Shown piece after piece: positions 1 through 55,541 of a stretch of DNA of 64,000 nucleotides. This stretch comes from Leptogorgia sarmentosa. Taxonomy: Eukaryota. The notes beneath the pieces were generated by a model. It did no database searches, was not told the DNA's origin, and worked only from the letters and a program-made list of their open reading frames with translations. The translations under genes were made by a program, and so were the position numbers. The stretch covers positions 24,862,001 to 24,926,000 of the forward strand of contig OZ210885.1 in assembly GCA_964658305.1 (NCBI GenBank), in the 5' to 3' direction. The stretch's first letter is position 1, and each line of letters begins with the position of its first letter.

Positions 1-637
1 TTTTGCCCTGAAATATGTGCCTTCAAGGCGGTTCAATTTGTAATTATTATTCTTAATGTAAATTGCAACAATTTCCTTTATTAGTAATATTACAAGCCTT
101 TTTCTGTCATATGTAGGTTGCCACAATAAATGTGTCCACCTTTAGCAGATCTTTCAAAGAGTGGAAGTTCTGCAAATTTGAAATGGAAGCTCTTCAGCAA
201 AAGAACTGGATGGAGTGTCCTCCCTGTAGAATTAGTCAGCATTCTGGACATGTGGATGGAAACATGAAGCTATATCGCTTTAGATCAGCTGGATAGTAAT
301 AATTATTTTATGATATTTAATAAACTTAGAGTTACTGAAAGTAATGAACGTCTGTACTCTCTAATAACAAAAGATCAGGATCAGGAAGAGTGGGCAACAC
401 TATGGTGTCCCATTAGAGACATTCATTATTTCACAGTTTTTTCCAAAAAAAAAAGAATTTCTTTCTAAATTCTCATTTTGAAATTCTCGTTTTGAAGTAG
501 TTGGGTTCAAAAAAAAATTAACTGATCTAAAATGAAATTTTACATGTCCCATTGGAGACATTGAAATATTCATACAAAACTCCCTAAATTGTGTGCCCGA
601 AGATTAGCCTGAACATTCAGGTTGAGTAAAAACAAAA

Positions 638-1852
638 ATGGCGGGTGTTCGTGGAGGATTATGGAAAGACGACATCGATCTTAAGATTGCATTGCAAGAT
701 CTTGTTAAGAAAGATTATAAAAGGAGTGAAATTCTAGTAACTATACAAAAAGATTTTCCTCAATATACGTGGGGCTGTGTCAAAACCCTGGATCGCCGTC
801 TCCGCCATTTTTCAATCAATTATATCGAATATGACACCCCTTTAGAAACAGTGCAGGATGCTATAGCGAAAGAACTCGAGGGACCAGGTTCTCTTTTGGG
901 TGTGCGAGCCATGACAAAGAAGTTGAGAATGCATCATGACATCAAAGTTCCGAGAAATTTAGTTAATGCTGCCATGTTTGATGCTGATCCCGAAGGACTC
1001 GAGGATAGACGACCTGCCAACAGAAAGAAAAAACGGGATGGAAAATTTGTCACCATGGGAGTTAACTGGGCTTGGAGTCTCGACGGACATGACAAGCTAA
1101 TGGGGTTCCAGAACTGGACATTTCCTCTAGCAATCTATGGTTGCTATGATACTGCATCAAGGAAAGTGATTTTCATAAAAGTTTGGAAATCTAACTCAGA
1201 TCCCAATTTTGTAGGACGTTGGTATTTTGACCACCTTTATACATCGCAGCGTATCCCATCAAAATTAAGAGTTGATCGTGGCACTGAGACTGGTATTCTT
1301 GCAACACTACATGTATTTCTGCGGCGCAATCATGGAGATATGGCTCCTGAGGACACAGTTGAGTATGGACCGTCTACCAGCAATAGAATAGAGCGTTGGT
1401 GGCGCGAATTGCATGAGAGATTGGGCAAATTTTTTAAATTTCAGCTACAACAACTGCTGGAGCAAGGCTTGTATGATCGTGAAGATGAGAATGATCGCAA
1501 GATGTTGGCATATGTTTTTATCCCCATTGTGCAAAGAGAAATTGATCTGTTTGTTGATATGTGGAATAATTCACGAACCAGGTTTCAAAGAAACACTTTA
1601 ATGCCAGATGGAATCCCCAACGTTATTTATAACTCTCCAGAAGAGTATGGTTTGGAAGATAAAGGGTGGAATCTTAGTAGAGAAGAGCTTGCTGAAGCAG
1701 CTGAGGCCTCTGGGGTTCTTAATGTACCAGATGACTTTGTGGATGAAGCTTTCCGAGCTGAATGCTCACGTCACTTACCAGATGTTGAAAGTGTGCAAGC
1801 GAAAGATGCTGCTAGGAAATACATAGAATTACGAAACATTATGAAAGCATAA
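638..1852 (+). CDS. IS3/IS481-like DDE transposase (integrase core), 404 aa, intronless
   Basis: Motifs WSLDGHDKL, YGCYDTASRKV, LRVDRGTET, GPSTSNRIERWWREL, FVDMWNN and GIPN; N-terminal helical (HTH-like) region; AAAATGGCG start context. Confidence 0.92.
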   Translation: MAGVRGGLWKDDIDLKIALQDLVKKDYKRSEILVTIQKDFPQYTWGCVKTLDRRLRHFSINYIEYDTPLETVQDAIAKELEGPGSLLGVRAMTKKLRMHHDIKVPRNLVNAAMFDADPEGLEDRRPANRKKKRDGKFVTMGVNWAWSLDGHDKLMGFQNWTFPLAIYGCYDTASRKVIFIKVWKSNSDPNFVGRWYFDHLYTSQRIPSKLRVDRGTETGILATLHVFLRRNHGDMAPEDTVEYGPSTSNRIERWWRELHERLGKFFKFQLQQLLEQGLYDREDENDRKMLAYVFIPIVQREIDLFVDMWNNSRTRFQRNTLMPDGIPNVIYNSPEEYGLEDKGWNLSREELAEAAEASGVLNVPDDFVDEAFRAECSRHLPDVESVQAKDAARKYIELRNIMKA

Positions 1853-2171
1853 ACAAGATATTCTAAATTTAGTCAGTAGTAAAACAAACTTGAAAGGCTA
1901 ATTGTGGCCAATTCATTGATAATATAACTTCTTATTTTAATTGTTTGTAAACAAAGGTTAGCTGTCACAACATTAATTCTGTGGAAATTAATGTATCCAT
2001 ATATATTAATAACTTGCACTAAAAACTGTAATGTAAGTATGTAACCAAACATAAACTAAACCAACAATATAAAAAATATGTTCATCACAGTATATGAACC
2101 TAACCTATAACATATACACTGTAGTCTGCAATCTCACTGTGTCACCATTATGCTTCTTTTACAATGACACT

Positions 2172-3805
2172 TTAACAAATTTCTTTAAAGCAAGAGTTAC
2201 AATATTGGTTGCATTTGTGCTGCCCAAAAAAATTATCTATGGCCTTTGTTGAAAGATTTCCAATGCAAAAGTTCAGTTTATCTTCATCATCCTCCTTGGT
2301 CATCAGATCGGCACTAGCTATTTCTGGATCACATAACTGGAAACCAATCCCTTGAATATCAACTAATAGGAATTTTTGTTTGCTGATAACATAAGAGAAA
2401 TGGGCTAGAGCCTCGGCTTTTTCCACAGCAGCTGTTGGAAGCTCACGATCAATATCTCCTGTATTGTTCATATACTTAACAAATGGTGATCCGTCTATAA
2501 ATTTTTCAATGGTAACAATTTCTAAGCTACCATCTGCCTCGCAATGCATTTTACCAAGAAATGCAGTATTATATGAAAACATCTCACCAGATTTATTAGC
2601 AAGTTTCCTAGCCATCTGTTTTGCAATTGATTTTGCTAAGTTGTGCATTTGCACTTGCTTCCTTGCATGTTCTTCTTCGCTTATTCCAATGCAAAGTAGC
2701 TCTTCTTTGGCTTTGTCGTTATATTTTTTCAACAACCAGGTCCCTGGAAATTGCTCATCTCCACTTGAGCACTTGTAAGCAATACGAAAACCACCTTCTG
2801 CAAATTTTTTATCCTGGATATGGAATGATACACTTTTTGACGGACTCCATTCATTGTTTACATCAAATTCTTGTACCTAAAGAAATCCCAAGACATTTGA
2901 GGGTGAGTTTGTTATTCATGGGGTTGCTTTTTTTGGGGGGGGGGGGCAGTTTGGAAAAAATATGATTATTAGTTTATTAGAAGCAAAGTTTAAGTACTCA
3001 GAAACAAATTAGAAAAGCTTAGAGAATCTATGCCAGAGCAACTCATAAAAATGACAATTTCAAAAATATAAACATTTGACTATCATGATCTGCATCACAA
3101 ACAAAATATAACGAATTTGAATGGTCTCAAGTCTCAGTACAAAAAGATAGTAATTTCAATAAAAATACTATCTTTTGAAAACGAAATTTATACCTGTATC
3201 ACCGTTTCTTTTTTCGGTTTAATAACCTGGCCCAATCTTAACATTGCTGTCACTGAAAGAGACTTCGCTACAGGTTTAGATAATGAATCTTTCTTACGAT
3301 CTTCGGGCAAATGTGCACTTTTTTGTGGACTACTTTGGACGGTTGTTGGTTTTCTTGGTTTCTTTGCACGTGGGACGAATGGGACCGGGAAATCGATATC
3401 AGCCAAATCATCATTGTCTGAATCGGTGAAAGTTTGATTAATAAATCTTACAAACAGCGTGCCATTCAGGTTTTTTATTTCGTCCAGTGATTCGATTGAA
3501 GGACCTCTTTCTGTTTCTAAGATATCGCAAGTCATACCAGGAACATTAAAACCAGCTACACACGCCCTACGTATAACGTCAATTGAGGCTTCCTTGTACA
3601 AATCGTCTTCCAAAACGTCCACCCGCTTTAGTGGTCCCATTCGGGCATATTTTTGAGAACTGCCTTTCACTTGTGCGGATAACCTTTGTATAGTTAGTTT
3701 TGGGGGTAAAAGTCTTTCTTTGCCCTTGTTTGATTTGTTTTTTTCATTTTTCCTTTTCCTCTTTTCTGCCATAGTCGCTTCGTATTTCTTAAATATTTCC
3801 GCCAT
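2172..3805 (-). CDS. Alpha-kinase (eEF2K/MHCK/TRPM7-type atypical protein kinase), 2 exons, ~438 aa
   Basis: Exon 1 3805-3194 and exon 2 2876-2172 join in frame through a GT-AG intron. Exon 2 has FAEGGFRIAYK, WLLKKY, TIEKFI, FVKYMNNTG, ALAHFSY, LLVDIQG, LCDPEIAS, GNLS and the C-terminal HKCNQYC zinc motif. Confidence 0.9.
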
Positions 3806-4283
3806 TTTTAATCACTGATCTCAATATAAACAATGGACTATATGTCTAGCATGAGGGTTTCTGATGATGTAATGTTTTCCAATGTCTCCAATGGGACATG
3901 TAAAATTTCATTTTAGATCAGTTAATTTTTTTTTGAACCCAACTACTTCAAAACGAGAATTTCAAAATGAGAATTTAGAAAGAAATTCTTTTTTTTTTGG
4001 AAAAAACTGTGAAATAATGAATGTCTCTAATGGGACACCATACAACACTTTCTGATTTAATTATTTTAGGTCTCAAAGAAACAACCTCGTACCCAGGGTC
4101 TTGATCCTCGCTCTCGAGGAAAGACCCTGGTATGGACCGATGACGTTTTACGCGAATTTCGCGTAAAATGGCGGATTGCTCATTAGGGTCGAGAGGGTGG
4201 GTCAAACATTGTCGTTATTACTATTAGTAATTAGATATGACGTTTATGTAAATATTCGAAATTTCACTTCTCTTGACCTGAAC

Positions 4284-7200
4284 ATGCAAAAACGAACTCC
4301 GAAAAAGTTTTATAGTACTAGTGAACAGATTCAAAGATCTTCCTGCCGTTTATGTCTAAAGATCTGCGATGTGACTCACGTGAAAAAGTTGTTCAGACCT
4401 GCAAACGCCAATATTCTCAAACTAGCTGAAGATTGTTCGGGCGATGTCCTTGTTAGAGACGGAAACCTGCCTCAAAATATTTGCAAACCTTGTGAGAGAC
4501 GGTTGTTGAACTACAAGGCTTTTAAAGAGCTAATTCTGAAAAGTCAAGACGCACTTAAATCACAGTCGAGAGCGAAAAGATGCCCCGAACCATCGCCTTC
4601 TTCATTGCCTGCAAGAAAGAGGGTTCACAAAGAAGCTTCATTAACACCACGAACTTTATTATTTTCTTCAAAAGAAAATACGGTGAGTTTGAAACAATTA
4701 TCTTTACTGTATTATATGTATTCTCTATGACTATTTTAATTTCCGATCTTTTTGTACTTGCTATATTCTTCAATGATAAATGGCTTGGAAAGTGCGTGCA
4801 GAGCCAGGATTGATTAATTAAATATAAAGCATTGCTTGCCTTTGTTTGTTTGTTTTTTACAATATGTTCATGGCTAATTTTAGTTTTTAAGCATGACAAT
4901 CACAAGTTTTTTCGGGTTTTGACACTACAAGGTTATTGCAAGTGTTAATAACTCATCGTCATATACGGAAGCGATATATGATGTTAACAGACGCAAAATG
5001 AAATAGTAGTTTTATACAATACATAATCACACTTTATGTCAAGTCAAACGGACGAATTTATACGCGCTACTGGCAATTCGTTTTACAAGCAATTTTTCCA
5101 AGTAATGCGCCTCAAATACACAAATTTAATTAACAGAACGACTGCTCTAACTTTAGAATTGAAAATTTGATACATCGATAACATTTTCTATAAATTTGCT
5201 TTGTTTTTTAGCCAGCTTCTTCAAATGATGCTCAACATGACAGCTCTTCTAAGAAGTTCGAATTGTCTAAAAAAGAGGTTACCTCGAAGATGCAAATAGA
5301 ACTGATTAATGCTGCCCGCAGAAATAGCAATTCTATATTGGGAAAAAGGGACTTTCCCGCGTTGTCAAATGTTGACTTCAAAGAGATAATCGAGGAAATG
5401 AGACAGCTATGTCCTACAGTTTATGAAATGGTTTTTTCTTTGTTGGAAATGGACATAGGTACTGAAAACAAGTTTCCAACCATGGCTTTGGTTTACGGCC
5501 TTACAATGTTTAAACGTTCTCGTGAAATGAGCCTGCTACAAAGATTGAACACTTTGCTTTTGATAGATGGCGACGCAAATCAAGAGGTAAAATATGAACT
5601 AGTTAGTATTACAGTAAAATTTGTTTCCCTAAATTTCCTATACATACACATTAAAGCGTTACTGTAGCTAACTAGCTATTGTAAACCGACATTCTACTAT
5701 TACTGAATTTACAAGTTACAACATGTTCTTATCAAAACAAAAGGAATGATATCCTAATGTCACGGACTCACTAGTGAGCGCAACGAACAAAGGACATTTT
5801 TGACATCATCCAGAAAGGACTAATGTAACTTGTAAATTGTAAAACTTGTACCGATATCGTAGCCTGTTTATCACATACTTCAACCGATTTCATCATTCCA
5901 ATGAAAAAGATATATCAGTGCCAATATCACAGTAATGAATGCATAACTGAAGTATGTGGTATAAATACAGTGATATATGTCTATATTTTCTTGGTTTTAA
6001 AACCTCTTTTATGTCTAATTCACTAGGTTTTGAATAGATTAAATAAGTATGGCATTTGTCTAACATCTCAGATGAAGTACCCCATTCTTGAGGACATTGG
6101 TAACCATTTTATGGATCAGGCAGTTGATCTTGTTAAAAAAGGTCATAACTTTGTGTATGTCATGGATAATATTGATTGGACAATCAAAGTTCACGAGATG
6201 CGATCCGATAACCAAAATAAAGACGTACATGCAGTAGCAACAAGCTTAGTGTTTGATCGTGTACCTAAAAAACAATTCTCCAATGATGCACCTCAACAAT
6301 CTCTTGCAAATGTTAATGTCAGAGAGATTGTCACTCCAACTGCTGAAGAAATGGCTTGTACAAGAGGGCGATACAAGGTCCTACTTGGAAATATTATCTG
6401 TGAATCTCTACAGGCCTTCAAATCTTTTAAGGATCTTGTTGGCAGCACCTCAAGTCGTTATCCGGATGAGATGCGGTCACCATCTGTCATTGTTCCCTAT
6501 CCAGTTTTGATGAAAGATGAGAAGAAATATGCTGAATTAGTTGCTGTGTTAGACACCATGGAGACATGGATTCAAGAGCTTTATTCAAAAGCTAGTATTG
6601 CTAACAACACCAGTGTACCTATTCTTTTTACTGGTCCTCCAATTGCAACAACATCTCGTCCTGATCAACCTGGATCACACATTTCACGACTCCTTCCCCC
6701 TGATGATCCTTTACCAAAGGTTCCATGCTATGGTGATCAGCTTTCAAGAGTCAGACTCGCAGGTGGCAAAGATCTTAGAGCTGGCTGCCACACTTCCAAA
6801 GATAGACTAGATCATCTCTATCCATTCAGAATAGCAGGATGGCATACAAAACAAAGCCTCACTAAAGTAAGTTTTTAAAATTTCTTGTTTTACTGAATAC
6901 TTGATGTAATGCCTGAAAAATCTACTGGTCCATGAAGACCTCTGTGGATCTTTATGTATTAAAGGACACTGTCCCAAGGAGTTAACTAAACATTTTGAAT
7001 TGCAAACACTGAAAGTTTATATTATTAGAAAAAACTATAAGAAATATTAAAAAGTTTATATCGATCATGCATTGAAGTCATCTCGATTTCTTTGTTAATA
7101 AAAAAATATTTTGTATTACATTTAGCTGATATTCAAGAAGTTATATAACAATTCTGCCAGAGAAATTGGAACACTACGATACTTCAGAGAAATGCTCCAG

Positions 7201-8404
7201 AGAAGAAATGTCACAAAGGACGTGAAGCACTTTGAAGAATGTGAACAATTGTTTCTATTAGTTGGCAAGTGTTATGTTGTAGAGGCATTGTTAAATTTCT
7301 TCAACATGTCTACAGTAAGTGATCCACCAAGAAAGAATAACCCAAATTATCGTTTAATGTCTGTGGAAGAGCAGAGGAGTACCTACTGGGATGCAATGTT
7401 GGATAAATTTATGAATGAGCACTTAACCACACCTGGTCTAGTACCTGTGGAAGGAAACATGAGGCAAGATGACATTGCAATTGAATCATCTAATGAAAGT
7501 GCAGATTTAGTGAGAGAATACTCACTTCTATTGCTGAAGTACTACTTTTTAGGTAATTGCTATATAGTAATTTTAAAGTCAAGTTAACTACAGTAGTATC
7601 TTTCTTTTTTCATATTGAAAATTCAAAATGCTATACAACCTACACATTGTTTAATTTTTGTATAAAAACACAAAGTTATCTAGTTTTTTGACAAGTTTAA
7701 ATTGTGTCCTTGTATGAAAAATCTATTATGAAAAATACTATCTATAAATTACCCTTCTCTTAGTTGCAGATATCAAGGATGCTGTTATGAAAGGGAATGG
7801 GGAGAGAATCAACCAAATTCACAAACAACTGTTGCACCACTTCAAAACTGACCCTGGGTACAATGCATATGCGATTGAGATGCTTATCAACATTATCCAA
7901 AACGAGGTTTTGCTTTCAGAAAAAGAATATTACCAGTGTACGTGGGCAGAAACTGCAAATTGGACAGGAGGAGAAGGTAAGAATTTAGAAATCGACCTCA
8001 TGCAAGAAAATCGGAACAGGGACCTAAAGAAATTGATCAAAGGCATGGGTGCAAATAAGACAGATAAAGCAATTGAACGTGCAAGTAGAGCTGTTGGCGG
8101 AGTTAGGAAAGTGATGCAGAATTTTGATGCTCAAGCAGCTGTCCGTGCCAAATCAACTGCCCACAGTCACAAATCTTCATCTTCAGATGAGCTTAAAGTC
8201 TTAAAAGACTTGCGGAACTTGAAACCTTTTGCACACAAGAGTGACAGAAAGCATCCTTCATTCCCTTCTGTGTCATCTAATCCACTATGTGATCTTGAAG
8301 GCCTAAAATTTAATGACTGGTTAAAACGTCATAAGAAAAACCTCTTGTACAGAGTTCCAACTATGGAAGATGAGATAGAAAGTGATGAGAGTGAGGACAC
8401 TTGA
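4284..8404 (+). CDS. Academ-type transposase, 5 exons, ~893 aa, with N-terminal zf-AD-like zinc finger
   Basis: Exons 4284-4682, 5212-5586, 6027-6866, 7126-7552 and 7764-8404 splice in frame at GT-AG. Motifs: CRLC...ICKPCERRL, VMDNIDW, CYGDQLS, GWHTK, DAVMKGNGER, NLEIDLMQENRN. Confidence 0.82.
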
Positions 8405-8940
8405 TATGTTATCACTAATACAATGCTCTAGACTCACTTTGTTAGTTTACTTTAATTGTGGAAGAACAGACAATTTTGCTCATAAGTAGTAGTTGTTTCC
8501 TTCAAAAGGAAATGGCAAGAAACATTTTGTGTGCATAATTTAAAAAAATCAAGTTTGTAAAAAAAAATTATGTTATCTACCACACATCCTGTGTAGGTGT
8601 TCTAGAGCTCCAAATTTAATGTAAGTGAAGTGGGTTATTATACCATTTGAAAACAATAATAGAAATCTGTAAGAGGTTCTGAAATATATTGAATCACTTC
8701 TTTCTAATTCAAGCAGCAGACATTTATTGCCATTTCCCTTCAAATGGGAACATTAATTAACACAGCACCAGGTTTCCCAGTTAATTTCATCATTTCATTT
8801 GTAAATTTTCTTAATAGTACTTGTAAGAAAGTAAACAATATTTTTACTGTATATACAACGAGAACATTTGCAAACAAACAAAATTACTGAATTTTCTCCA
8901 ATAAGCTCAAATTATATATCGTCTAATTTTATGTTATGAT

Positions 8941-11154
8941 TCATACAGTACAACTAACACAGTCACATACCAAACTGCAATTGCTGCAACATAGGTGTCC
9001 AACGACATGTTCCTCTGGTTTAAGTCCTGCATCTAAACAGTTTAAAAGGTATTCTCTCATGCATGATTGTTCCAAATGGCAGTAGGCTCTGATATTCTCA
9101 CCGATTCCTTTCTTGTTTTTACCAATGTCACGATTATTATAAAATAACAACACCTGTGATGAAGATCCGTCTCTACCAGCTCTCCCAGTTTCTTGCATGT
9201 ATTCCCTAACAGTTCCAGGTGGCCCAATGTGGACGATCTTTCTAATGGAAGGTATACCCACTCCCATGCCCATTGCAATGGTGGCAAACACCACCCTCAA
9301 CTTGGAACATGAACATCCCAGTTCTTGAAGAATTTGCTCTTTCATGGCAGCAGTTTGAGGAGAATGGAATTGTGAGAATAATCTATTTTCAGGAATCTGG
9401 TCTGCACCAGTAGGAAAATACTGCTCAGAGCCCAAAATCCTCTCAAATAGTCTATATGCAAACCCACACCATCTCAGACTTAGGTAAACAATTGTTAGTG
9501 GGTATTCGATTTTCTGTGCTAGTAGATCTTTAGCAATTGGTGTTAATATTTCTTCATACGATTCAATATCGGGGCCATTCCTGAATACTTTCTTATAGAA
9601 AATATTTGGTCGGTTAAGACTTCCTACAACTTCCAGGGGGTTTTTCATATGCAATGTGTCCTTTATTACTTGTCGGTCTTTCTTGCTTGCGGTTGCTGAA
9701 AGGGCAAGAACAGGAACTGAAGGGAAAAGAGCGCATATCATACCAAGGTTGGAATAATCTGTTCGGAAATCATCACCCCTAAAAAATTACATTTGATACT
9801 TTCAAAAAGTAGATGGGTAAAATTAATTAGAAATACATTCTTTACCAGTGTTACGGTAGTGTATTTATAACCTATTAGTATAGTCTACTTAGTCTTACCA
9901 TTCCAAAATGCAATGAGCTTCGTCCACAACAATTGCTTGAACCGAGTTTTGGTATGGCACAGATTGTAACAAATTAAATCCTGCCTTAGACGATAAACAT
10001 GCCTCGGGATGAAGAAACAGGATATCAAATAACGCATCTTTGATGTCAGGTTCATCGCTCAAATCAGCACTAAAAGGCCCCGTCCACACGTATCCGGATA
10101 AATTTGAAAACGCATAAATATTTATACGGTTACGGGTTCCGTCCACACGTAAACGGCGTTTTCGCCCACTGAAAACGGATAAATTTGAAAACGCTCTCCA
10201 GAGTGGATAAATTTGAAAACGCCGGCCAAGCGGATCCGTGTGGACGCCTTATCCGGATAAATTTGAAAACGATTTGAAAACGATGACGTAACAACTCGAA
10301 CCCAGTGCACTCGGAAGCAATGGTCGAACATAATAAAAGCTCAGAATCAGAAGTATTTTCTTTTGATGGTTGTTGATGCGATACAAGCGCTTTTTAAAAA
10401 CAAAATTTAGTGTGGCGTTTTGACAGAGCGCGTTCTACTCACATCTCTATTGTTATTGTTTGAAAGACATTGAAATAATTTATTGTGTTGTGGATTAACT
10501 GTGACATTTTTAACATTCCATTTTAAAACTTGCGTTTGTTGTTAACATTAGCCAATAATGCGCGCATTTTAGCTGTGCTGTTTTGATCAAAACAAACTCG
10601 CATTTATATTAGCCGATGAGCATGCGGGCACACATTTTTTTCTCTAAAGAGCATGCTCGGTAGGCGATGTCAGCGTTTTCAAATCGTTTTCGCGTTTACG
10701 TGTGGACGCCAAAAACGATTCAGAAACGACAACGTGTGGACGCAGACTTTTTTGAAAACGGATAAATATTTATGCGTTTTCAAATTTATCCGGATACGTG
10801 TAGACGGGGCCTAAAATCAGTTTTTAAAAAGGTGGCTCTTAAATTCGTGCTGCCATTTATCTTTTTTATCTGATCCTCGACCAGTGAATTCAATGGCGAA
10901 ACAACAAGAATAACAGCAGATGATCGGTACAAAACAACCTCATCAGATCGCCTTTGTTCATACAGGTTTCTCTCATTAAGCAGCGTTGGGAGCAACTGAT
11001 AAATCAAAGATTTACCATATCCAGTAGGCAAGACAGCCACAGTATCTCTTCGATTATATAGGGCATCCAAACACTTCGTTTGTTTCGGTTTCAGATTTAT
11101 ATTGCTATACAAATTACTTTTGTTTACTGCAGAATGAAGGCAAGACATAAACAT
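8941..11154 (-). pseudogene. RecQ-like superfamily II helicase (~450 aa reconstructed), interrupted by a MITE
   Basis: Motifs LPTGYGKS, VVSPLNSL, VVDEAHC, LALSATA, VFATIAMGMGV, QETGRAGRDG and C-terminal CMR...CCSNC. Exon 11154-9899 (contains the MITE) and exon 9778-8941. Removing the MITE plus one TSD restores the frame (KTDF-SADL). Confidence 0.9.
10075..10812. mobile_element. PIF/Harbinger-like MITE
   Basis: ~50-bp TIR AGGCCCCGTCYACACGTATCCGGATAAATTTGAAAACGCATAAATATTT; 3-bp AAA duplication; internal GGATAAATTTGAAAAC repeats. Confidence 0.75.
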
Positions 11155-12259
11155 GCTTAGTTATACAAATTCTTCCACTCCACCCCCCCCCTTAGTCGCA
11201 TGAATTTCATACGTGACGTCATCGATCCATACCAGGGTCTTTCCTCGAGAGCGAGGATCAAGACCCTGGGTACGAGGTTGTCAAAGAAACTGTTATTACA
11301 ATGAGTGTTTCATTGCTTCAAATAGAAAGTTGATTCAAACAAGAATGATGTGTGCAGAATGACAATCAACAGTGAGGTAACATCCCGATTAGCTACATTT
11401 ATTGGCATTCTCCTGTTTTATATTTCATGTTGGTTCATACTGTATATAGCGTATACTCAGTAACGTGGTCTTGGTAGAGCGGGAAAAAACTTATTGTTTC
11501 ACCTGCAAAGGGTTCGATTCCCTTATGATGTGCAATACATGGTATGTCTATATAGAGTATGCCCAGATAATATCACACTCGCCATCGTAATATTAACTGT
11601 ATACGTTTTCTTATGTAAACATTTTTAATAAAGAACAATACTCCAAGTTCGATGTGTGGTGAAACTACCTGGAGGGCTGCACGAAATAGAGCAGGGAAAA
11701 AAAGAACCTTGACGAAACTGGCCTGGAGATTCTTGGTTGCAGACACACCGTCGCCCAAGCTGCAGTAAATATGTTTCAAGGGGAAATTTACAGCTATGCA
11801 CACTATCTGCAAAAACACGTTCTAACTAAAAATAACACGCTGTTCCTGTGGTATGATGTGGTTTGTCAATACTGGCCGTGGCTTATTAAGCATGATCCGG
11901 TACTTGCTGGCCAGACAAAACCTGGGTTGTCCGTTATGCACGCTAAAGCTCATTCTTGGACATGCCAGGTATTCTATTGATTCTAATAGAATACTAATAA
12001 TAATATATGTAGAACACCGGAGAGGTTATTTTAAATGTAAAATTTAATAAACTACAGTACAGTGAACTACCTACTACTATTAGAGCAGTAGAAATCGGTT
12101 TATTGAGAAGAGTATTCATTCATTACATCTGGTTTGCCGTCCATGCATTGTCAGTGTCACGCCTGGCATTATAGAGTCCTTAGTATTACTGCTGTCATCC
12201 TCCATTCACGCACCCGTCACTCCTAGTCATACGTCTCATTTTTGTTTCTTCTATTCTTA

Positions 12260-12718: not shown

Positions 12719-13151
12719 CTTATTCGTACTTAATTTCGCGTGACTTTAATTTCGCGATTTTCGCGATTGAAAAAAAATCGCGAAATTAAAGTCGCGCGAA
12801 TAAAAATCCTCGCGAAATTTAACCACGCGAAATTAAATACATTAGTTAAACAATTGGAATTGTTAAATCGTTAATAATTTCTCGATATATATGATCAACA
12901 ACAACATGTACAGCTCGCATATCGTTTTACCGACATCGACATATATAAATTTCAATAAAAGTTAAAATTCAATAAAATTCAATTGTTAAAAGTTAAAATT
13001 CAATAAATGATGGTTTTGCAAATCTGTATTTCGCGAAAATTAATGCCCTATTTCTATTTTCGGTCATCAAAATCGCGAAAATAAAGTCTCGCTAAATATG
13101 GCTTCGACAAAATCGCGAAATTAAGTACGCGCGAAATTAAGTACGAATAAG
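12719..13151. mobile_element. MITE, probably Tc1/mariner group
   Basis: Inverted ends CTTATTCGTACTTAATTTCGCG and CGCGAAATTAAGTACGAATAAG; many subterminal CGCGAAA/TTTCGCG repeats. Confidence 0.65.
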
Positions 13152-13425: not shown

Positions 13426-14283
13426 CAGTGAACTCAAAATAAAACTGGAACGCTAGCTGGGCGGGAAATTTTGAAGCCAATATGGCGGAAATTGAAGCTC
13501 GTCTTGTGGGTATGATCCAGGCCCCTGCGCGGATTATCCGTAGGCAATATGGCGGCAATCATGAATATGTAAAAAAAGTCTCGTCTTAACACTCAATTTA
13601 CAGACCTTTTTAGATAATAATAACACAGAATAGAGCAGGTATTCTGCATGAACAACTTTTAGAAACACTTAACGGAGCAGCAAAATTATTTTTGTATGAC
13701 ATTGTTCGAGAAAACTTTGTAAACAGACGTTTATATGCCGTATAAAAAACAAAAACAAATATTTTGTCATTGTCTGAGGTAATTAAGTCATCACTCACAA
13801 GTCACAACACGAACAACAAGAGCTCTACTTGCACAAGCCTTCCATTTACTGTTTTTAAGTTAATTACGTTTTAAGTAGCTTATATATTTCATAAAATAAT
13901 ACAAATTTGTTGAAGTTCACTCTGAACGTTCGAATTTTGTCCAAATACATTGAAGACATTGTATCCTCACAAAATAAGATAAATATTCGATCGATTGTAA
14001 ATTATTATTTAGAAATAAACTGTCCTTTGAAAATTATTTAGAAATAGCGTAAAAATCCTGCATAATTCAAACAAAAACTACAAAATTTCCGCATTTGAAC
14101 AACGAGTTTCCACAACATTGTCGGCGTTTCGTCGCCATGCTTTCACCCTTCGTGACTACCCCACGCAAAAAACACGCGTGTTTTATACCTACAAGAGAGG
14201 CTTCAATTTCCGCCATCTTGGCTTCAGGCATGTATGGGCATGTTTACCTGAAGCTAGCGTTCCAGTTTTATTTGAGTTCACTG
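13426..14283. mobile_element. Non-autonomous hAT-like element
   Basis: TIR CAGTGAACTCAAA(A)TAAAACTGGAACGCTAGCT; 8-bp TSD CATGGGAC at 13418-13425 and 14284-14291; second copy inverted at 49104-49857. Confidence 0.85.
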
Positions 14284-20184: not shown

Positions 20185-21881
20185 TTAATAAAATTTAACC
20201 AGGTTTCCAAAGGAATCCTCCTCCAACGAAAATACTGCCTCTATGGCATGAATAAAGCTGGCCATATCTGTTAATGTATTCGATGAAACAATCACTGCTC
20301 CTCGAGTACCATCCATGTGAGTGTGAGTGTCAACGGCCAAAACATATCCATTTTCTTCCGTCATTATAAGAAATGATCTATCGCCTTGAACAAATGCTGC
20401 CGCTGACTTTTTCTTCACAAACATACGTTGAATTTGAAAAGCCAGTTGAGTGGGTTTATGTGGATCACGTATGCGGACGGCCAACGGTTCGTCAACATGG
20501 ATATTCCTAATGGAACGCAGAGCAAAGGAAGCTTCGCGTGGGGTCAAATTACGTTGTCCTTGATTGGTGTCGTCGTAAATTTTGTTCCCCAAACGAATAC
20601 TTTTCTCTATCACAGAACACCACAATGGACTCAATGAACCAACACGAGGAAATAGAAGATCTAAATTCAGTATAACACTGCCCAAGATCATCGTAATGAC
20701 AGTGCAAGCGCTACTACCATTTCGACCATCAATAGTGCTTTGGCTCATGTTGACTGGAAAGACCCAACAATTTGTGCTGTTACCACCTACGTTGTAACAC
20801 TGTACATTTGAAGGCGTGGCTATTACAGACGTCATTGGATGCGGTGCAGACGAATTCACGAGCGCGATGAATGACTTGTCTGATTCGGATTGTGTATCTG
20901 CAACTGAAGTCAAAGATGGTGGTGGGCTGTCCTCCGTAATACCGCCAGGTGTTTCAGTGAAGATAACAGTACCGCGGCCAGGTACACGTCTCTGTTGTGG
21001 TCGTCGGGGCACAGCATCTTCATGATGGCTAGGTGTTGTGGACACGGAATTTCCTCGTTGTTGTGCAGAGATCAGCACATCCTGCTCTGGATGTTGCGGT
21101 GTAGGCATGGTGATGTCTCGTTGCTGGGCAGAGGCAGGTGCAGGAGCATTTCCTTCTGGTCGGCTAGGTGGTGGTAGCATGGAACTTACTTGCCGCTGGA
21201 GCTGGGTGGTGACATTTGGTTGTTGCAGCGTATGCGTGGGTGTATTCTCTTGGGGACGGTCCGGTATATCAGAGACAATAGCCTGGAGAAAGAAAGAAGA
21301 CAAGTTACAGCAATGTTGAATCATCTTTACTATAAAGCCGTATCACTGCATACAACCAACATATAATTCAAATTGTCCAATGAAACTCTCAGTGAACCTT
21401 GAACTTTAAACTCTAAGTGTGGAAAGCGTAATGAGAGCAACTTTCCAACTTTGTCGTTAAATATTTCGACTATTACTTAATGTATTATGCTCGCAGGGAG
21501 GTATTCCATGTCTCTAAAAATGTGCTGTGTGTATGGCCTCTGAACGTTTAGAGTTGAAGGTTTCAAGTTTAATGTTTATAGTTCGCAATTTATAGTTAGT
21601 TAGACTTTATTGAATTGGCTCTGTACTACATACAGTACCGTACATAATGGTGGATATTCCCCCAACATATAGGGTATATATAGAAAACTATACTATGTTT
21701 TGAACAATTCGAATCCAAGCGAAGTTGAAACATCAACTTACCGAAGCTACAGATGAAGAATGCGCAGACAGATCTTCAAACAACAATTCACCATCGTTCA
21801 CTTCAATTGTACTACTCGAGGTAACTGGCGTTTCCGCTTGGTTAGCATCACTCATATCTTCCCTGAACTTCAATGAATTTT
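20185..21881 (-). CDS. Protein with a Pro/Gln/Ser/Thr-rich linker and a C-terminal papain-like domain resembling herpesvirus tegument deubiquitinase (peptidase C76); 5' exons unresolved
   Basis: Large terminal exon 21282-20185 and upstream exon 21881-21742. Motif order SQSTIDGRNGSSAC...IRLGNKIYD...VLAVDTHTH...GAVIV matches the Q..C / G..Y / D-x-H pattern. Confidence 0.6.
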
Positions 21882-33703: not shown

Positions 33704-34145
33704 TGTTGAGTTAGATACTGTTGCCATCGCTCTATCTTGAATACGAAGCACAACAACTTTGGAGTTTTACACAGTAATAATTTAATCATAAAAATCATTC
33801 ATATATATACAAGATTAATCTATGATAAGTATTTTAACATAACATTCTTTTACCATAAATGGTTTACAAATTTGGTCCATGCAACACATATTTTTACACT
33901 GGAATTTACGGTATACAACATTACATTTTTACCTACATAAACCAATTATCTATATATTACCATTGTCATTTTGATAATTGATTTCATTACTGAATTGACA
34001 GGATATCAGGAGCATATTCTAACACCCCCACTTGCTCTTATATTCTGAGCATCTCTACTTCTTTAATTTTTAATTACTGTTTCTCTATAATCCCATATAT
34101 TTCTATAATTCCATATATTTTTATAATCTTGTGTAACACTAACAT

Positions 34146-34193
<48 letters not shown>

Positions 34194-37100
34194 ATTATTA
34201 TACGCAGCGCATTTATGAACCTAAGAGGAAAAGCTTAAATTTTTCTAACTTACCTTTGCTAGTTGGTTTTGTGAAAATGTCAGCTATATTCTCTTCTGTA
34301 GGGACATACTTCAAACTGACAATACCGGCCTGTATCACAGACCTTATGAAATGATACTTAATGTCAATGTGTTTTGACCTTTGATGGTGTACGGGGTTTC
34401 TAGCTAAATTTATAGCTCCCTGATTGTCTACCTGAATAAGTACATCATCTCCTCCTGTACTTACCTTCATGTCTTTACATAGTTGCCTCAGAAATTTTGC
34501 TTCTTGTACGGCGTTTGCAAGGGCAATATATTCTGCCTCGCATGTCGAGAGTGCGACTGTTTGTTGCTTGCGGCTTTTCCAGGAGATCACAGGACCTGAC
34601 GATGTCAGCTGAAAATTGTACCCAGTTATACTCCGCCTATCTATCACTGATGCCCCCCAATCAGAGTCGCAAAAACCGTTTAGCTTTAGCGGTTGGTTGG
34701 ACTTTCGAAATGTCAAACCTTGGTCGGATGTACCCTTCAGATATCTTAAGACGTGTTTAGCCGTTTCGAGGTTGGCCTTTGTGGGTTTAGACAATTTTTG
34801 TGAGAGCTTCGTCACGATGTAACACAAATCGGGCCTGGTACCTGTCATAACATATATTAGGCTCCCAACCATAGCCCTATACTCACCTGGGTCTCCTAAG
34901 GCAGGTGACTCTTCTTCTGAGACCTTTTCTATACCTAAAACACACGGGGAAGGCTTGGGTTTGCAATCGGACATCCCAAATTTCAGGAGAATTTTCTCAA
35001 TGTATTGTTTCTGGTTCATTTCGATGCAAGATTCCTTGCATTTGAACTCTGTACCCAAGAACCACGATAACTCCCCCAGGTCCTTCATCTTGAACCTTTT
35101 ACCTAAAGATTCTTTCACTGTAGTCAGTAATTCAAAAAGACTGGCGGCGATAATAATATCGTCGACCCACACGATTACTATAACACATTGTTTTGGGTCA
35201 ATCATTCTCACATACACACATGGGTCAGCCTGTGACTGAGTAAAACCTTCTTTCTGCAGATACTGGTGTAATATGTTATTCCAATTTCTACCGCTTTGCT
35301 TTAAACCATATAACGATTTATTTAATTTGCACACTAGTTTCTCGCCCTTCTCACCACGTTCCTCGAAACCTTCAGGTTGTTCCATGTACAGTTCGCAATC
35401 TATAGGCGCGTTAAGGTATGCGGTTTTCACATCCATTTGGTGAACGATCATGTCATCTTGTACGACACGTTGTAGCAATGTACGGATCGAGCTCATACGT
35501 GCGGTAGGAGCGAATGTTTCTTGGTAGTCAAGCTCAGGAACTTGGGAGTAACCCTTTGCTACGAATCTTGCCTTATGGGTCTCTTCCCCATTTTGGCCAA
35601 TTTTTACAGCATAAACCCATCTTCCCCCCACTATCTGTCGGTCTTTCGGGGGAGAGACTAACTCAAAGGTATTATTATCCTTTAATGCACTTACCTCCGC
35701 CTCCATGGCAGTTTGCCACTTATCCGCCTCTGACGATTTTACTGCTTGCTTATAACATTTTGGAATGTCTACAGCCCTGAAGCAATAGTCGACAGTGTGA
35801 TTAACATTGTCATCAGTAATATACTCATCGAGGTAAGTGGGTTTGTTGCGAGCGCGGGTTGGGTATCTCGGCTCGCTGTGTTCTATCTCTACCTTACTTT
35901 CGGCATTTTCATCCGTTTGCCCGTTGGTGGCCTCCATTGGTTCGGTGGTCTCTCTATTTGGCACAATCAAGCCATCTTGGTCGTGATTGGACGCCTCTGA
36001 CACATATTTATCAAAGAATTTCACGCATCTTACCCTTTCCACTGTGTTTGTTTCTGGGTGATATACCAGATAGGCTGGACTGCCTTTGTCATAACCTACA
36101 AAAACACCTTTACGGCTCCGGTCGCCTAATTTTTTAGCATTTTGGATAAGGGCATAGCACGTTGACCCAAAGATATGCATGTTGTTGAGATTGGGTTGCT
36201 TACCTGTCAGTGCTTCATATGGAGTTTTTCCTAACCTAGAGTTGAAGCACCGATTTCTAATATACACTGCGGTCATTACCGCGTAAGTCCACAAACGTTT
36301 GGGGAGATTCGCTTCTAATAGCATGCATCTAGCCATGCTAAATAAACTACGCCACGCTCTCTCCACAGTGCCATTTTGGTGTGGGGAGTAAGGCGCACTG
36401 GTTTCATGTTTAATCGAGTTTTTACGCAGCAGTGATCTAAATTTCCGGCTGGTGAATTCAGTACCATTATCGCTCCTAATGCGTTTTACCCTACCGAAGG
36501 GTGCAATATCGGCCAAAAACCTTTCAGTAGCCTCCACTGTGTCGCTCTTCTGTTTAAGAAAGTATATAAAGTTAGTACCTGTAAAATCGTCAACGAATGA
36601 TAGGGCGTACTTAAAACCATCCTTTGCTGCTGGCTCAACTGGACCAGCCAAATCACAATGAACAAACTCGAGGGAACCTTTTGCTCTCTGATCGGGTTCT
36701 CGATTTCGATACTGGCACATTTTACCCTGTGTACATACCTCACATGTGATCTCCTGGTCATCCACGATCTTCATACCCTTAACCACACTCTGGAGTTTAC
36801 GTACATCGTTGTAATTGCAGTGCCCCAATATCTTGTGCCATTCCACGAGCGAGGATGCGTTATTTTGAGGAGATGATATACTATTTAAATAATACAATTT
36901 ACCTACCTGTTCTATGCCAAACACTATTCCCTTGGGGTCCCTGTACTCTCTAACCTGCCTATCTAAGCTAACAGCAGCCCCCTTCTCAATGGCAGCAGGG
37001 ACGGAGAAGATATTTTGCTGATAAGATGGAATATACAGCGCGTTACTAAGCATTACATCTTGTAAATTACCATTAACATCATACAATTTAACTTTGGCGT

Positions 37101-38409
37101 TACCTTTGCCTAAAACAACATTAGCTTTGCTTCCGTCAGCTAACTCTATTACATGCTTACTCGGATCAAACTTTTGATCGAAACTTACAAATTTAGATTT
37201 ATCATTAATTATATGACTCGTTGCCCCTGTATCTACTAATAGATTCGGGGTCTTACCTCCATTGGGAATACTTTCCTTGAGTGTAAATGCAAATGAATGT
37301 ATCTTCTTAGCTTCTTCTTCGTCTTCGCCGGTTTCAGCGGCCATCTTCACACCATCCTTTCTTCCTCTGCAGTCCTTGGTATTATGTGTCTTCGTCTTGC
37401 ACTTGTTGCACCACTTTGCGGTCTTCGTCCAACAATCCGAACTTTTGTGTCCTTTCTTGTCGCACTTAAAACACTTTCCGTCGAATTTCTTGTTCACGAA
37501 CATCACGTTGTCACCATCCTCTGCCTGTCTGCCGCATTTCTCGTTTTCTTCGTGGTTGCGCAACGCGATTTTGAAGTCGCCAAAACTCATTTGTTTTTCC
37601 CGTTGTATCACAACGGTCGAAAACGTTTTATACGTCTTTGGTAGCCCCTTCAGTACCATGGCAATCAGAAGTCCGTCGCTGATCACCTCATCGGCAGCCT
37701 TCAGCGCCGTGGCCGCAGTTTCCGCCCGTATGATGTAGTCCGTTATCGTCTCATTTTCTGCTTTCTTTAACGATGTTAGCTCTGTATACAACGATATTAT
37801 TCTGGGCTTTCCTTTGCCTTGATAATGTTCTCTAAGAACCGTCAGAGCTTTCTTGCCATCGTCTTTCGCCTCTCGTATGACTAGGGCCAAGCTCCTGTCA
37901 TCCAAGCATTGCACAAGTTCGGCAAATGCATCAGCGTTCTTTGCCTCACTGAGTTCTTCTTCATCGCTGCTAGGGATAAAGATCTTGTAGAGTTTTTGGA
38001 GTCGCATGTATCCCAAAAACTTCACCTCCCACAACTCATACTTATTTTCATCTCCATCAAACATTAGACCTCTCCTGGGCCCATAACCTGTTGAGTTAGA
38101 TACTGTTGCCATCGCTCTATCTTGAATACGAAGCACAACAACTTTGGAGTTTTACACAGTAATAATTTAATCATAAAAATCATTCATATATATACAAGAT
38201 TAATCTATGATAAGTATTTTAACATAACATTCTTTTACCATAAATGGTTTACAAATTTGGTCCATGCAACACATATTTTTACACTGGAATTTACGGTATA
38301 CAACATTACATTTTTACCTACATAAACCAATTATCTATATATTACCATTGTCATTTTGATAATTGATTTCATTACTGAATTGACAGGATATCAGGAGCAT
38401 ATTCTAACA
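33704..38409 (-). mobile_element. Full-length Ty1/Copia LTR retrotransposon
   Basis: 321-bp LTRs (TG...CA) at 33704-34024 and 38089-38409, identical by eye. 5-bp TSD TGAAG. PBS GGTTATGGGCCCAG next to the 5' LTR; PPT AAGTGGGGG next to the 3' LTR. Confidence 0.97.
34213..38112 (-). CDS. Copia gag-pol polyprotein (gag, zinc knuckles, protease, integrase, RT, RNase H)
   Basis: CFKCDKKGHKSSDC, LVDTGAT, HCDLAGP...SDNGTEF...NGTVER, QMDVKTAYL, WVDD, FCDSDW, RSKHIDIKYH. Copia domain order; uninterrupted; likely start MATVSNS. Confidence 0.96.
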   Translation of the reverse strand: MATVSNSTGYGPRRGLMFDGDENKYELWEVKFLGYMRLQKLYKIFIPSSDEEELSEAKNADAFAELVQCLDDRSLALVIREAKDDGKKALTVLREHYQGKGKPRIISLYTELTSLKKAENETITDYIIRAETAATALKAADEVISDGLLIAMVLKGLPKTYKTFSTVVIQREKQMSFGDFKIALRNHEENEKCGRQAEDGDNVMFVNKKFDGKCFKCDKKGHKSSDCWTKTAKWCNKCKTKTHNTKDCRGRKDGVKMAAETGEDEEEAKKIHSFAFTLKESIPNGGKTPNLLVDTGATSHIINDKSKFVSFDQKFDPSKHVIELADGSKANVVLGKGNAKVKLYDVNGNLQDVMLSNALYIPSYQQNIFSVPAAIEKGAAVSLDRQVREYRDPKGIVFGIEQVGKLYYLNSISSPQNNASSLVEWHKILGHCNYNDVRKLQSVVKGMKIVDDQEITCEVCTQGKMCQYRNREPDQRAKGSLEFVHCDLAGPVEPAAKDGFKYALSFVDDFTGTNFIYFLKQKSDTVEATERFLADIAPFGRVKRIRSDNGTEFTSRKFRSLLRKNSIKHETSAPYSPHQNGTVERAWRSLFSMARCMLLEANLPKRLWTYAVMTAVYIRNRCFNSRLGKTPYEALTGKQPNLNNMHIFGSTCYALIQNAKKLGDRSRKGVFVGYDKGSPAYLVYHPETNTVERVRCVKFFDKYVSEASNHDQDGLIVPNRETTEPMEATNGQTDENAESKVEIEHSEPRYPTRARNKPTYLDEYITDDNVNHTVDYCFRAVDIPKCYKQAVKSSEADKWQTAMEAEVSALKDNNTFELVSPPKDRQIVGGRWVYAVKIGQNGEETHKARFVAKGYSQVPELDYQETFAPTARMSSIRTLLQRVVQDDMIVHQMDVKTAYLNAPIDCELYMEQPEGFEERGEKGEKLVCKLNKSLYGLKQSGRNWNNILHQYLQKEGFTQSQADPCVYVRMIDPKQCVIVIVWVDDIIIAASLFELLTTVKESLGKRFKMKDLGELSWFLGTEFKCKESCIEMNQKQYIEKILLKFGMSDCKPKPSPCVLGIEKVSEEESPALGDPGEYRAMVGSLIYVMTGTRPDLCYIVTKLSQKLSKPTKANLETAKHVLRYLKGTSDQGLTFRKSNQPLKLNGFCDSDWGASVIDRRSITGYNFQLTSSGPVISWKSRKQQTVALSTCEAEYIALANAVQEAKFLRQLCKDMKVSTGGDDVLIQVDNQGAINLARNPVHHQRSKHIDIKYHFIRSVIQAGIVSLKYVPTEENIADIFTKPTSKGKLEKFKLFLLGS

Positions 38410-44436: not shown

Positions 44437-45295
44437 TTTGACCAATTTTGAATTGGTTGGAGTTAGTTACCAATAGCTTATTGGTAAAAGTGACCAATAT
44501 TTAATTGGTCATATTTATTAACCAATTGTAAATTGGTTTAAATGACCAATTGACATTGGTTGCAACCTAAAAAATTGGTCATTTTAACCAATCTGTTTTT
44601 ACTGTGTATACAAGGGCCTGTTGGACATTCCAAGGGAGCATACAGCCAAGCATGCCTGGATTGCATCCATCCGTGATGAAATTGTGTGATTGATCAATGC
44701 ATATTCTGGGTATATGTTGGAAATAACAAATATACCATTACTGTGCAAATGCATAGTTTAAACTTTAAGGGGCTATAGGCTATATCAAGGTGTTTTCAGT
44801 AAATTCTCTCCTGAATTGCAAGTTTCAAATTCAAAAACAATAAATAGACTAAATCTAAAATAATACACATGCGTCGTTTCAAACCCCATTACAACAAAAT
44901 TCCTGCAACTTGAACAAAACATGGCATATTGTGCAAAGATTCCACGTGACACGTGTCAGAGTTGCTCAAAATATTAACCTGATACTGCCTCCCCCGGCAT
45001 AGTTCAATAGAGAGTTTGGCAACGCGACGGGAGGTAGCGACGGCGACGCAAATTTTTTTCCCGTAGACAGTCGGACCCCTCCGAGATGGTCGTACCCCTC
45101 CTTAGCTTGTGCCCAAAATCATATCGGACAGCGGATACCGAATAACTTACAAATTAAAATTATTACAGAATAATTATTATAAATGTTTGCTCATTTCCTG
45201 GTGCGGTTATTCATAGAACATGGCAGCGAACAAGGAAAACATATCGGGAGTTTTTAATCAGAATTTGAATCAGAATAGGGCTGATTATTCGTTAA

Positions 45296-46301
45296 AGGTG
45301 GGTTACAGTCCCTTCTGCGCATGTGCGCTGAGTTTGTTATGAGTAGGCTACTCATGTTACAATCATAACAAGTTCCCAGTCCTACAGAGCAATAACAACA
45401 CGCGCGGTCGCCTAAATGTTTTCACTGTCGTGGGCTGCAAGGAGCGATGGCTGATCCAGGCGCGTCAAGTTCCGTAGAAAAACCCTTCAAATACTAAGCG
45501 CAAGAAAAGAGACGCATCTAAGATATTTTTATTCGATGCTTTCGAGAGGTGGAGAGCGTTCAAACAAGAACGCAACTTGAAGACTGACCAGAATGTGGCA
45601 GATTTTCTGCTCGATAATTACGCACGGAGAAACACGTTATGGTGAGTGTGTTGATAATATAACTAAACCTTTGACCTTTTATGATGATTTTACGCTTTAA
45701 TATACTTCCCTTTACATATTTTATATGTATTCGGTGTGGAATCCAGTCGTTTCGCCCCCAAGTCGATTCGCCCCAAGTCATTACATGTCAATTTGTATTT
45801 GTAAGAATACCCCAAAACTTATTCAATATTTCAATATTCGTTAAAGCTTTTTAGCAAAATATATGAATTGCAAATAGGGGTTGATTATTCTTGTGAAGAC
45901 AAAGACCAAAAGCGTAAAATCATCATAAAAGGTCGAAGGTTTAGTTATATTATCAACACACTCACCATAACGTGTTTCTCCGTGCGTATTATCGAACAGA
46001 AAATCTGCCACATTCTGGTCAGTCTTCAGGTTGCGTTCTTGTTTGAACGCTCTCCACCTCTCGAAAGATGCGTCTCTTTTCTTGTCATATACATTTCTAG
46101 CGTCAGATATGCAACGACGCTTAGTATTTGAAGGGTTTTTTGCGGAACTTGACGCGCCTGAATCAGCCATCGCTCCTTGCAGCCCACGGCCGCGCGTGTT
46201 GTTATTACTCTGTAGAACTGGGAACTTGTTATGATTGTAACATGAGTAGCCTACTCATAACAAACTCAGCGCACATGCGCAGAAGGGACTGTAACCCACC
46301 T
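45296..46301. mobile_element. Kolobok-like non-autonomous foldback element
   Basis: TTAA-AGGTGGGTTACAGTCCC...GGGACTGTAACCCACCT-TTAA; ~400-bp imperfect inverted arms. Confidence 0.8.
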
Positions 46302-46389
46302 TTAAGCTTTCAACTTGCTAAAACAAGTAACACAACAATTAGTCACAACAAAAATATACTGTTTGCTCTGTTTTTTTTGCGGGCATGTA

Positions 46390-48309: not shown

Positions 48310-49103
48310 TGTATTATTTGGTAAGTACTTCGTCTTGCAAGGTTGAATTGGATCCAGGGTAAGATGGGGAAATAAGGGTTGGTTAGGGTTAGGTTGTGTT
48401 ATGGTTGGATCCACTATATGCTTGCAAGATGAAGTAAAACATGCCTACCATTATTTTTTGGATTTTGATCGTGGCAGTTTAAACTTTAAAATATTTATTA
48501 TGCAAAAATACCAAAAGGGGAAAAGAAAATTGAACCTGTAAACAGTAAACTTGTGTTTTCAGCTGGTTTTTTTCATTATGTACTAGATTATTGCCTCAAA
48601 ATAAAAGAAGTTGCTCGAAAGAAAAAAGTTGCCTGAAATTTGAAAAGTTGCCTGAAATCGTAGAAGTTGCTCCAAAGTTGCTGAGCATCTTGTGGACAGC
48701 CTTAGGTATTATATAATAGTTAAATGTTTTAGTGTGACGTAATTGCAAGACTCCGGAGAGTGACGAAATGACAGGCTTGAATACTAATGATCCAGGGGGA
48801 GAATACCCTCCAGAAAATCGGGGACGCAATCGCGAGTGTCCTTGGTCGTTTAAAACTGAATAATAATGAGTTGCTAGTAGTTTTAGCGGTTGGCCGAGCG
48901 GGAGACTGCTGTCTACAACACGATTAAAAAAAAAAAAAAAATAATAAAAAAAATGCCGAATTTAAAGCTTGCTATGCTACGCATCGCAAGCAATAAATAA
49001 ATATCACAATATAATCATCCAACGCTCATCCACTACCATCCCTCACAACAATCATTACACACGTATATCAACCACCTTCCTCCATCATCATGTCTGTTTC
49101 CAC

Positions 49104-49857
49104 CAGTGAATAAAACTGGAACGCTAGCTTCAGGTAAACATGCCCATGCATGCCTGAAGCCAAGATGGCGGAAATTGAAGCCTCTCTTGTAGGTATAAAA
49201 CACGCGTGTTTTTTGCGTGGGGTAGTCACGAAGGGTGAAAGCATGGCGACGAAACGCCGACGATGTTGTGGAAACTCGTTGTTCAAATGCGGAAATTTTG
49301 TAGTTTTTGTTTGAATTATGCAGGATTTTTACGCTATTTCTAAATAATTTTCAAAGTACTGGAGGGAATCAATTTTTGAACATAAATAGTATGAAATATA
49401 TAAGCTACTTAAAACGTAATTAACTTAAAAACAGTAAATGGAAGGCTTGTGCAAGTAGAGCTCTTGTTGTTCGTGTTGTGACTTGTGAGTGATGACTTAA
49501 TTACCTCAGACAATGACAAAATATTTGTTTTTGTTTTTTATACGGCATATAAACGTCTGTTTACAAAGTTTTCTCGAACAATGTCATACAAAAATAATTT
49601 TGCTGCTCCGTTAAGTGTTTCTAAAAGTTGTTCATGCAGAATACCTGCTCTATTCTGTGTTATTATTATCTAAAAAGGTCTGTAAATTGAGTGTTAAGAC
49701 GAGACTTTTTTTACATATTCATAATTGCCGCCATATTGCCTACGGATAATCCGCGCAGGGGCCTGGATCATACCCACAAGACGAGCTTCAATTTCCGCCA
49801 TATTGGCTTCAAAATTTCCCGCCCTGCTAGCGTTCCAGTTTTATTTTGAGTTCACTG
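49104..49857. mobile_element. Second, inverted and internally shortened copy of the 13426-14283 hAT-like MITE
   Basis: Near-identical sequence in reverse orientation; left TIR has a small deletion; no matching TSD. Confidence 0.85.
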
Positions 49858-55400: not shown

Positions 55401-55541
55401 AACACATCCTCAGTACTAGATTACCAATAATAGGTATATGTCAAATGCTCCTAAATTACCATTTATTGGCAATACAACGTGCATCGGTGGCTTCGGACCC
55501 AGGACACTACGATTGCAAATGCCGCGGATGCGTGTTTCAAA

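Follow-up and report, generated by a model that had tools for sequence, protein, structure and literature searches.

Why does a cut-and-paste DNA transposon carry its own protein kinase? The question is raised by a 3,642-bp element at positions 401–4042 of a 64,000-nt stretch of Leptogorgia sarmentosa DNA (contig OZ210885.1; this whole stretch is the window, and all coordinates refer to it). The element is almost certainly an autonomous, recently mobile transposon of the IS3EU/GingerRoot type, and it encodes two proteins, a DDE transposase and an alpha-kinase. The kinase is a fixed, selected part of the lineage and not a one-off cargo.

The element ends are sharply defined. The terminal inverted repeats (TIRs) at 401–563 (+) and 3880–4042 (−) are perfectly complementary across exactly 163 bp, starting with TATGG and terminating with CCATA, and the same 6-bp target-site duplication (TSD), CAACAC, stands on both flanks (395–400 and 4043–4048, read on the + strand), just as the original prediction had it. 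The TIR motif is found nowhere else in the 64-kb window. Within the left TIR an 18-bp motif is present twice (406–423 and 545–562), and we infer that the two copies are candidate transposase-binding repeats. TA..TA termini (TAYGG..CCRTA) with TIRs, a 6-bp TSD and an integrase-like DDE transposase that lacks the N-terminal HHCC motif are the features shared with IS3EU/GingerRoot elements as defined in the available text of PMC10045372 and PMC6839031, and the first D falls within 100–300 residues of the transposase start, as in that group. The TIRs are slightly longer than the 100–150 bp given there for clubmoss GingerRoot. GingerRoot elements have been reported from coral and sea anemone, and the ancestral IS3EU element encoded two proteins, according to the portion of PMC10853768 available.

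The transposase gene (638–1852, +) is intronless and encodes 404 aa. Its sole Pfam match is rva_4 (PF24764, E 5e-22), and no HHCC motif is visible in the translation. In an alignment of 50 transposases, comprising the query and 49 of at least 120 homologues, the residues of the putative catalytic triad recur in 50 (D149), 49 (D213) and 49 (E252) sequences. Together with the ends and the TSD, these properties fit the proposal that this is an IS3-like DDE transposase of an IS3EU element. The kinase gene lies on the opposite strand, and the two stop codons of the convergent genes are separated by 319 bp containing no open reading frame of at least 80 aa; a TET/JBP gene between transposase and kinase, a trait of TET+ IS3EU elements, was not found in the window element.

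The kinase gene consists of two exons. Exon 1 (3194–3805, −) contributes 204 codons and is joined across a 317-nt GT..AG intron (2877–3193, −) to exon 2 (2172–2876, −), giving an open spliced frame of 438 aa. We aligned to this region the contigs of seven sequencing runs, out of 11 containing related sequence; X2 and X3 are one sample, the type of run is not on record for X8 and X9, and stretches of the element that the latter two leave uncovered were kept out of the evidence. One X8 contig (depth 4.2; shorter side 75 letters) omits exactly the intron that had been predicted. The spliced joint was not seen in the six remaining runs examined, and X8 has no RNA label on record, so that the evidence for splicing is good but single. 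Both genes had been described as uninterrupted. Their frames are indeed open, but the kinase gene of the window copy contains a 2-bp terminal frameshift: the window copy and X6 are 2 bp shorter near 2195 than X2, X3, X5, X7 and X8, at a position just past the last zinc cysteine. After that cysteine the window allele encodes 8 residues and the commoner allele 13, among which the Leu residues at +3 and +5 agree with the homologue consensus (38/65 and 54/65). Every catalytic and zinc-binding residue is encoded upstream of the deletion, which therefore lies outside the catalytic core and alters only the final 8 residues.

That the second gene encodes a genuine alpha-kinase is borne out by a profile search, in which exon 2 matches the full Pfam Alpha_kinase model (PF02816) with an E value of 1e-33. 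Its sequence matches in the PDB are the TRPM7, MHCK-A and eEF2K kinases, and the predicted kinase fold is closest to those of TRPM7 and MHCK-A (E ~1e-16), with eEF2K and ALPK1 ranked lower. Compared with the structures of TRPM7, MHCK-A, eEF2K and ALPK1 (PDB 1ia9, 3lkm, 7shq and 8zd3), the enzyme has the same fold and the same catalytic and zinc motifs (Gly loop, Lys, DIQG, DPE, GNL and zinc H/H/C/C), but identity by structure is only ~20%, the protein is encoded by a transposon, and its N-terminal module is a different one. Among 65 mostly full-length kinases, what we take to be the catalytic Lys is conserved in 64, and the presumed catalytic Asp, the DPE Asp and the GNL Asn are each conserved in 65; the four zinc ligands are kept in 65, 63, 63 and 62. 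Two of the Asp residues align with a pair spaced by 10 residues in MHCK-A, for which structures of D756A and D766A are titled inactive. From its residues, the kinase is predicted to be catalytically active. Pfam finds no melastatin or ion-channel domains of the TRPM6/7 chanzyme type in the 438-aa protein, and the model of a close homologue, P0007 (Paramuricea clavata CAB3984462.1), contains a beta-grasp domain and a kinase only.

The N-terminal half of the protein had been left as a domain without an assigned fold. AlphaFold2 (AF2) models of P0007 (65 sequences; mean confidence, pLDDT, 87) and of exon 1 (62 sequences; pLDDT 82) instead predict that a basic N-terminal helix is followed by a compact domain (residues ~33–124; 3434–3709, −; pLDDT >90), then by a low-confidence linker and the kinase, whose N-lobe starts within exon 1. 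The best structure match of the compact domain is CIDE-N (VIA Z 6.7, root-mean-square deviation 2.6, 69 residues aligned), followed by ubiquitin-like and PB1 domains. These similarities are middling, with VIA Z nowhere reaching 8. Foldseek, with no match at E ≤0.001 (best E 0.014), and the Atlas, with scores below 0.9, weakly favor the same fold, and the domain has no Pfam match. We therefore describe it as a predicted ubiquitin-like (beta-grasp) domain at the level of fold class only. A hidden Markov model (HMM) of the domain matches 37/37 representatives of at least 380 aa, most of which had been in the alignment behind the HMM. In 40/53 sequences the 30 residues ahead of the domain contain at least eight Lys or Arg.

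Scanning metagenomes with the kinase alignment as query yielded 124 confirmed stretches, the best 80 of which were taken as loci and searched for a transposase downstream of the kinase, the census thus running from kinase to transposase. A convergent transposase is present downstream at 61/80 loci, and at 54/57 of those where the downstream sequence reaches 1 kb or more; L033, with a transposase on both sides, was excluded from the count. When the 80 loci and the window are clustered, linkage is found in 39/41 informative clusters at 90% kinase identity and in 27/29 at 70%. A second complete element, L064/L065, spans 4,777 bp with TATGG..CCATA ends and the TSD CTTGTG, and contains a kinase that is 37% identical and lies in short broken frames. 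Intron content varies in L003–L080, many relatives having an intronless kinase gene and a transposase gene that extends over >2 kb and probably contains introns, a pattern opposite to that of the window element. In a coral-metagenome pair, L033 (940–2298) and L035, the kinase frame is otherwise open but has lost part of the Gly-rich loop in-frame, a loss confined to one family. Most of the named homologues come from cnidarians, and others from Ciona and Patella. Viral contigs contained no kinase or transposase relatives, prokaryotic genome contigs contained no transposase relatives, and no host or fungal alpha-kinases of 880–2510 aa were returned by the kinase-alignment search.

The two genes have also diverged together and under constraint. 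Both genes are covered by 150 aa or more at 41 loci, which dereplication reduced to 26 pairs; the kinase and transposase trees of these pairs have 10/23 splits in common (Mantel rho 0.47, p 0.0002), and well-supported splits are recovered in the other tree for 9/12 in the kinase and 9/13 in the transposase. Between the window and its nearest relative, L001, the ratio of nonsynonymous to synonymous substitution rates (dN/dS) stands at 0.19 over 170 kinase codons and at 0.24 over 293 transposase codons. It is ~0.1–0.5 in most unsaturated pairs, many pairs being saturated at synonymous sites. The expectation that the kinase would prove a stable part of the element is thus upheld by linkage at 54/57 loci, by largely agreeing trees, by purifying selection and by near-invariant catalytic residues.

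The element has moved recently. Contigs of X2, X3, X5, X6 and X7 contain an element-free joint that runs from the left flank at 381 to 4043, where the right TSD begins, and the same five runs also contain the element body with few differences at most. Different flanks at the TIR end occur in one X7 contig and two X3 contigs. The insertion is therefore missing in four other individuals that have the element body elsewhere, which indicates recent transposition, as had been suspected. The element-free allele has 53 other letters between 381 and the TSD, compared with 13 plus the TSD in the window; a short direct repeat at 373–386 adjoins the divergent flank (373–400), possibly marking a small deletion in the flank or a footprint of older date. 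A low-depth (2.2) X7 contig joins 1665 to 3529 and may represent an internally deleted non-autonomous derivative, or an error.

The original prediction knew of no described pairing of transposase and alpha-kinase. The pairing had in fact already been stated for fungi: in all TET+ IS3EU families of fungi, according to the available part of Kojima 2025 (PMC12730594), the genes for transposase and alpha-kinase are oppositely oriented with a TET gene between them, and the elements have 6-bp TSDs and TAYGG..CCRTA ends. The window element and the 54/57 informative loci share the opposed orientation of the two genes. Compared with the TET+ IS3EU elements of rust fungi and Tuber, as far as that text describes them, the window element has the same ends, TSD length and opposed genes, but its host is an animal, it has a minimal 3.6-kb two-gene form without TET/JBP, and a predicted beta-grasp domain precedes the kinase; the kinases themselves are compared by description only. 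The part of PMC12730594 seen covers the kinase in two sentences, without analysis or function, and in the literature searched it alone connects IS3EU with an alpha-kinase. That search, to which Repbase and Dfam, whose entries may annotate the animal form, and most subscription papers were external, turned up no paper that studies this form or addresses function. The animal form is accordingly an addition to the fungal cases, contributing a census, co-divergence, selection, the beta-grasp domain, mobility and splicing.

The same comparison bears on the annotation of cnidarian genomes. The accessible text of PMC13143021 considers cnidarian kinase-only 'TRPM6-like' proteins mis-annotated, shows them as a group of their own, and derives the TRPM6/7 kinase from ALPK2/3; the string 'transpos' is absent from its main text. 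The close homologue P0007 bears a TRPM6-like name, and the Atlas clusters closest to it are cnidarian 'TRPM6-like' and Basidiomycota alpha-kinase clusters (score 0.98). The kinase-only 'TRPM6-like' proteins of cnidarians are probably IS3EU-borne kinases under a wrong annotation. Kinship of the animal and fungal element kinases is a lead from the same clusters.

What, then, does the kinase do? That it is a selected enzyme serving the element we consider highly probable. The contrary view, in which it is a captured host gene that is passive cargo or is retained for the benefit of the host, can appeal to the host gene fragments captured by GingerRoot elements (PMC6839031, in the part available), but the gene here is whole, constant in position and orientation across the informative loci, and co-divergent with the transposase at a dN/dS that is low in most unsaturated pairs, and the arrangement recurs in fungi (PMC12730594, likewise in part). 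Linkage, trees and dN/dS largely refute capture, and we regard it as very improbable. It is also unlikely that the kinase acts on host cytoplasmic signaling (translation elongation, innate immunity, the cell cycle or the DNA-damage response) and brings about a permissive state in the manner of eEF2K or ALPK1. Those two kinases are among the structural matches and one homologue is annotated as eEF2K-like, but TRPM7 and MHCK-A outrank them, their regulatory domains were not found in the 438-aa protein by Pfam or in the AF2 model of P0007, and the basic N-terminus suggests that the kinase acts in the nucleus.

The second protein of Harbinger elements offers an analogue for a different role, in which the kinase would be the transposase's own partner, docking through the beta-grasp domain and phosphorylating or chaperoning the transposase to govern entry into the nucleus, transpososome assembly or timing. 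Retention on a one-to-one basis and trees that match for the most part speak for such a partnership, given kinases that are down to 33% identical between families, as do the beta-grasp domain in all 37 long homologues and the identity of its nearest folds, CIDE-N and PB1, which are pairing domains and include the CAD/ICAD nuclease–inhibitor pair. The fold similarity is middling, however, and says nothing on function, and at L031 a kinase has been swapped between lineages. A complex prediction of the transposase with both kinase halves, made without alignments, scored 0.01, a 'no answer' that carries no weight either way. We consider partnership with the transposase a serious but rather doubtful possibility.

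Tentatively, we place ahead of these a nuclear, element-serving kinase that phosphorylates host chromatin or silencing proteins. In this scheme the DDE enzyme would perform cut-and-paste transposition with a 6-bp staggered target, as its family does; the basic N-terminal helix may be a nuclear-import or DNA-binding signal; the beta-grasp domain would dock the kinase onto a partner or substrate; and phosphorylated histones or silencing factors could maintain expression of the element or access to its ends. The suggestion of a chromatin or silencing target comes from the basic N-terminus, from cleaved TRPM6/7 alpha-kinases, for which nuclear entry and histone phosphorylation are reported (cited second-hand in the text available of PMC13143021), and from the TET dioxygenases carried by rust IS3EU elements and proposed as counter-silencing genes (PMC12730594, available part). 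A mobile IS3EU element with an alpha-kinase as its regular second gene, aiding transposition via chromatin or silencing proteins, would be the best explanation of the whole, if one that still falls a little short of being probable.

Several observations weigh against this explanation. The chromatin target depends on analogy, and a chromatin kinase acting in trans would aid free-riding elements as well, so that strict one-to-one retention suits a cognate transposase partner better. Co-divergence means only that linked genes are inherited jointly and does not imply physical interaction, and one supported conflict between the trees, at L031, indicates that kinases can be swapped. At 3/57 informative loci (L018, L056 and L058) there is no transposase match; the close pairs L013/L015, L005/L029, L027/L054, L027/L072 and L054/L072 have dN/dS values of 0.7–1.6; and many loci are fragmented into short frames, as decaying copies would be. 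Finally, the word 'kinase' is absent from the main texts of PMC10045372 and PMC6839031, and the silence of the GingerRoot paper counts on the same side.

The window holds further mobile elements. A 7.2-kb element (4082–11280) begins 34 bp past the CAACAC TSD, with 66-bp TIRs and a 9-bp TSD, TCAAAGAAA, at 4073–4081 and 11281–11289; it contains zf-AD, DUF6589 (a candidate transposase) and a convergent Helicase_C gene (8941–9786), and it too is missing in X2, X5 and X6, whose contigs run from 4082 into the sequence at 11291. Short elements resembling miniature inverted-repeat transposable elements, with 48–57-bp or nested inverted ends, lie at 10075–10812 (inside the 7.2-kb element), 12719–13151 and 13437–14273. 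A Copia-type long terminal repeat (LTR) retrotransposon at 33704–38409, whose two 321-bp LTRs show 100% identity and which has a single open frame of 1,312 aa, is a very young insertion. Two hAT transposase frames (Dimer_Tnp_hAT; 46390–48444 and 49725–50585) stand near an inverted repeat of ~400 bp and 85% identity at 45292–46305, and a spliced KDZ (Zisupton-type) transposase region occupies 55455–61454, with the Pfam KDZ match at 58553–58984. A 385-aa frame at 20185–21342 (−) is without a Pfam match; its N-terminal half is of low complexity, and its C-terminal part shows a 'GSSACT..DTH' pattern, which we take to resemble a papain-like peptidase.

Transposons with a signaling enzyme of their own are rare, and the retention of a kinase by IS3EU is only touched on in print within the literature searched. 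Taken jointly, the observations lean slightly toward a reading in which the IS3EU core includes a dedicated kinase, retained in fungi and animals alike; in animals the enzyme would be nuclear, would carry a ubiquitin-like domain, and would either rewrite chromatin phosphorylation or switch the transposase so as to license transposition, and the cnidarian 'TRPM6-like' and 'eEF2K-like' kinase-only genes would be transposon genes. For annotators the warning is that a cnidarian gene named 'TRPM6-like' but encoding a kinase only, whether met in a genome or in an expression study, probably belongs to a transposon. The L. sarmentosa element is small, catalytically intact as far as its sequence tells, spliced and still polymorphic, which makes the question testable by a two-gene transposition assay; if the joint reading is true, this young two-gene element would be a minimal test system for it.

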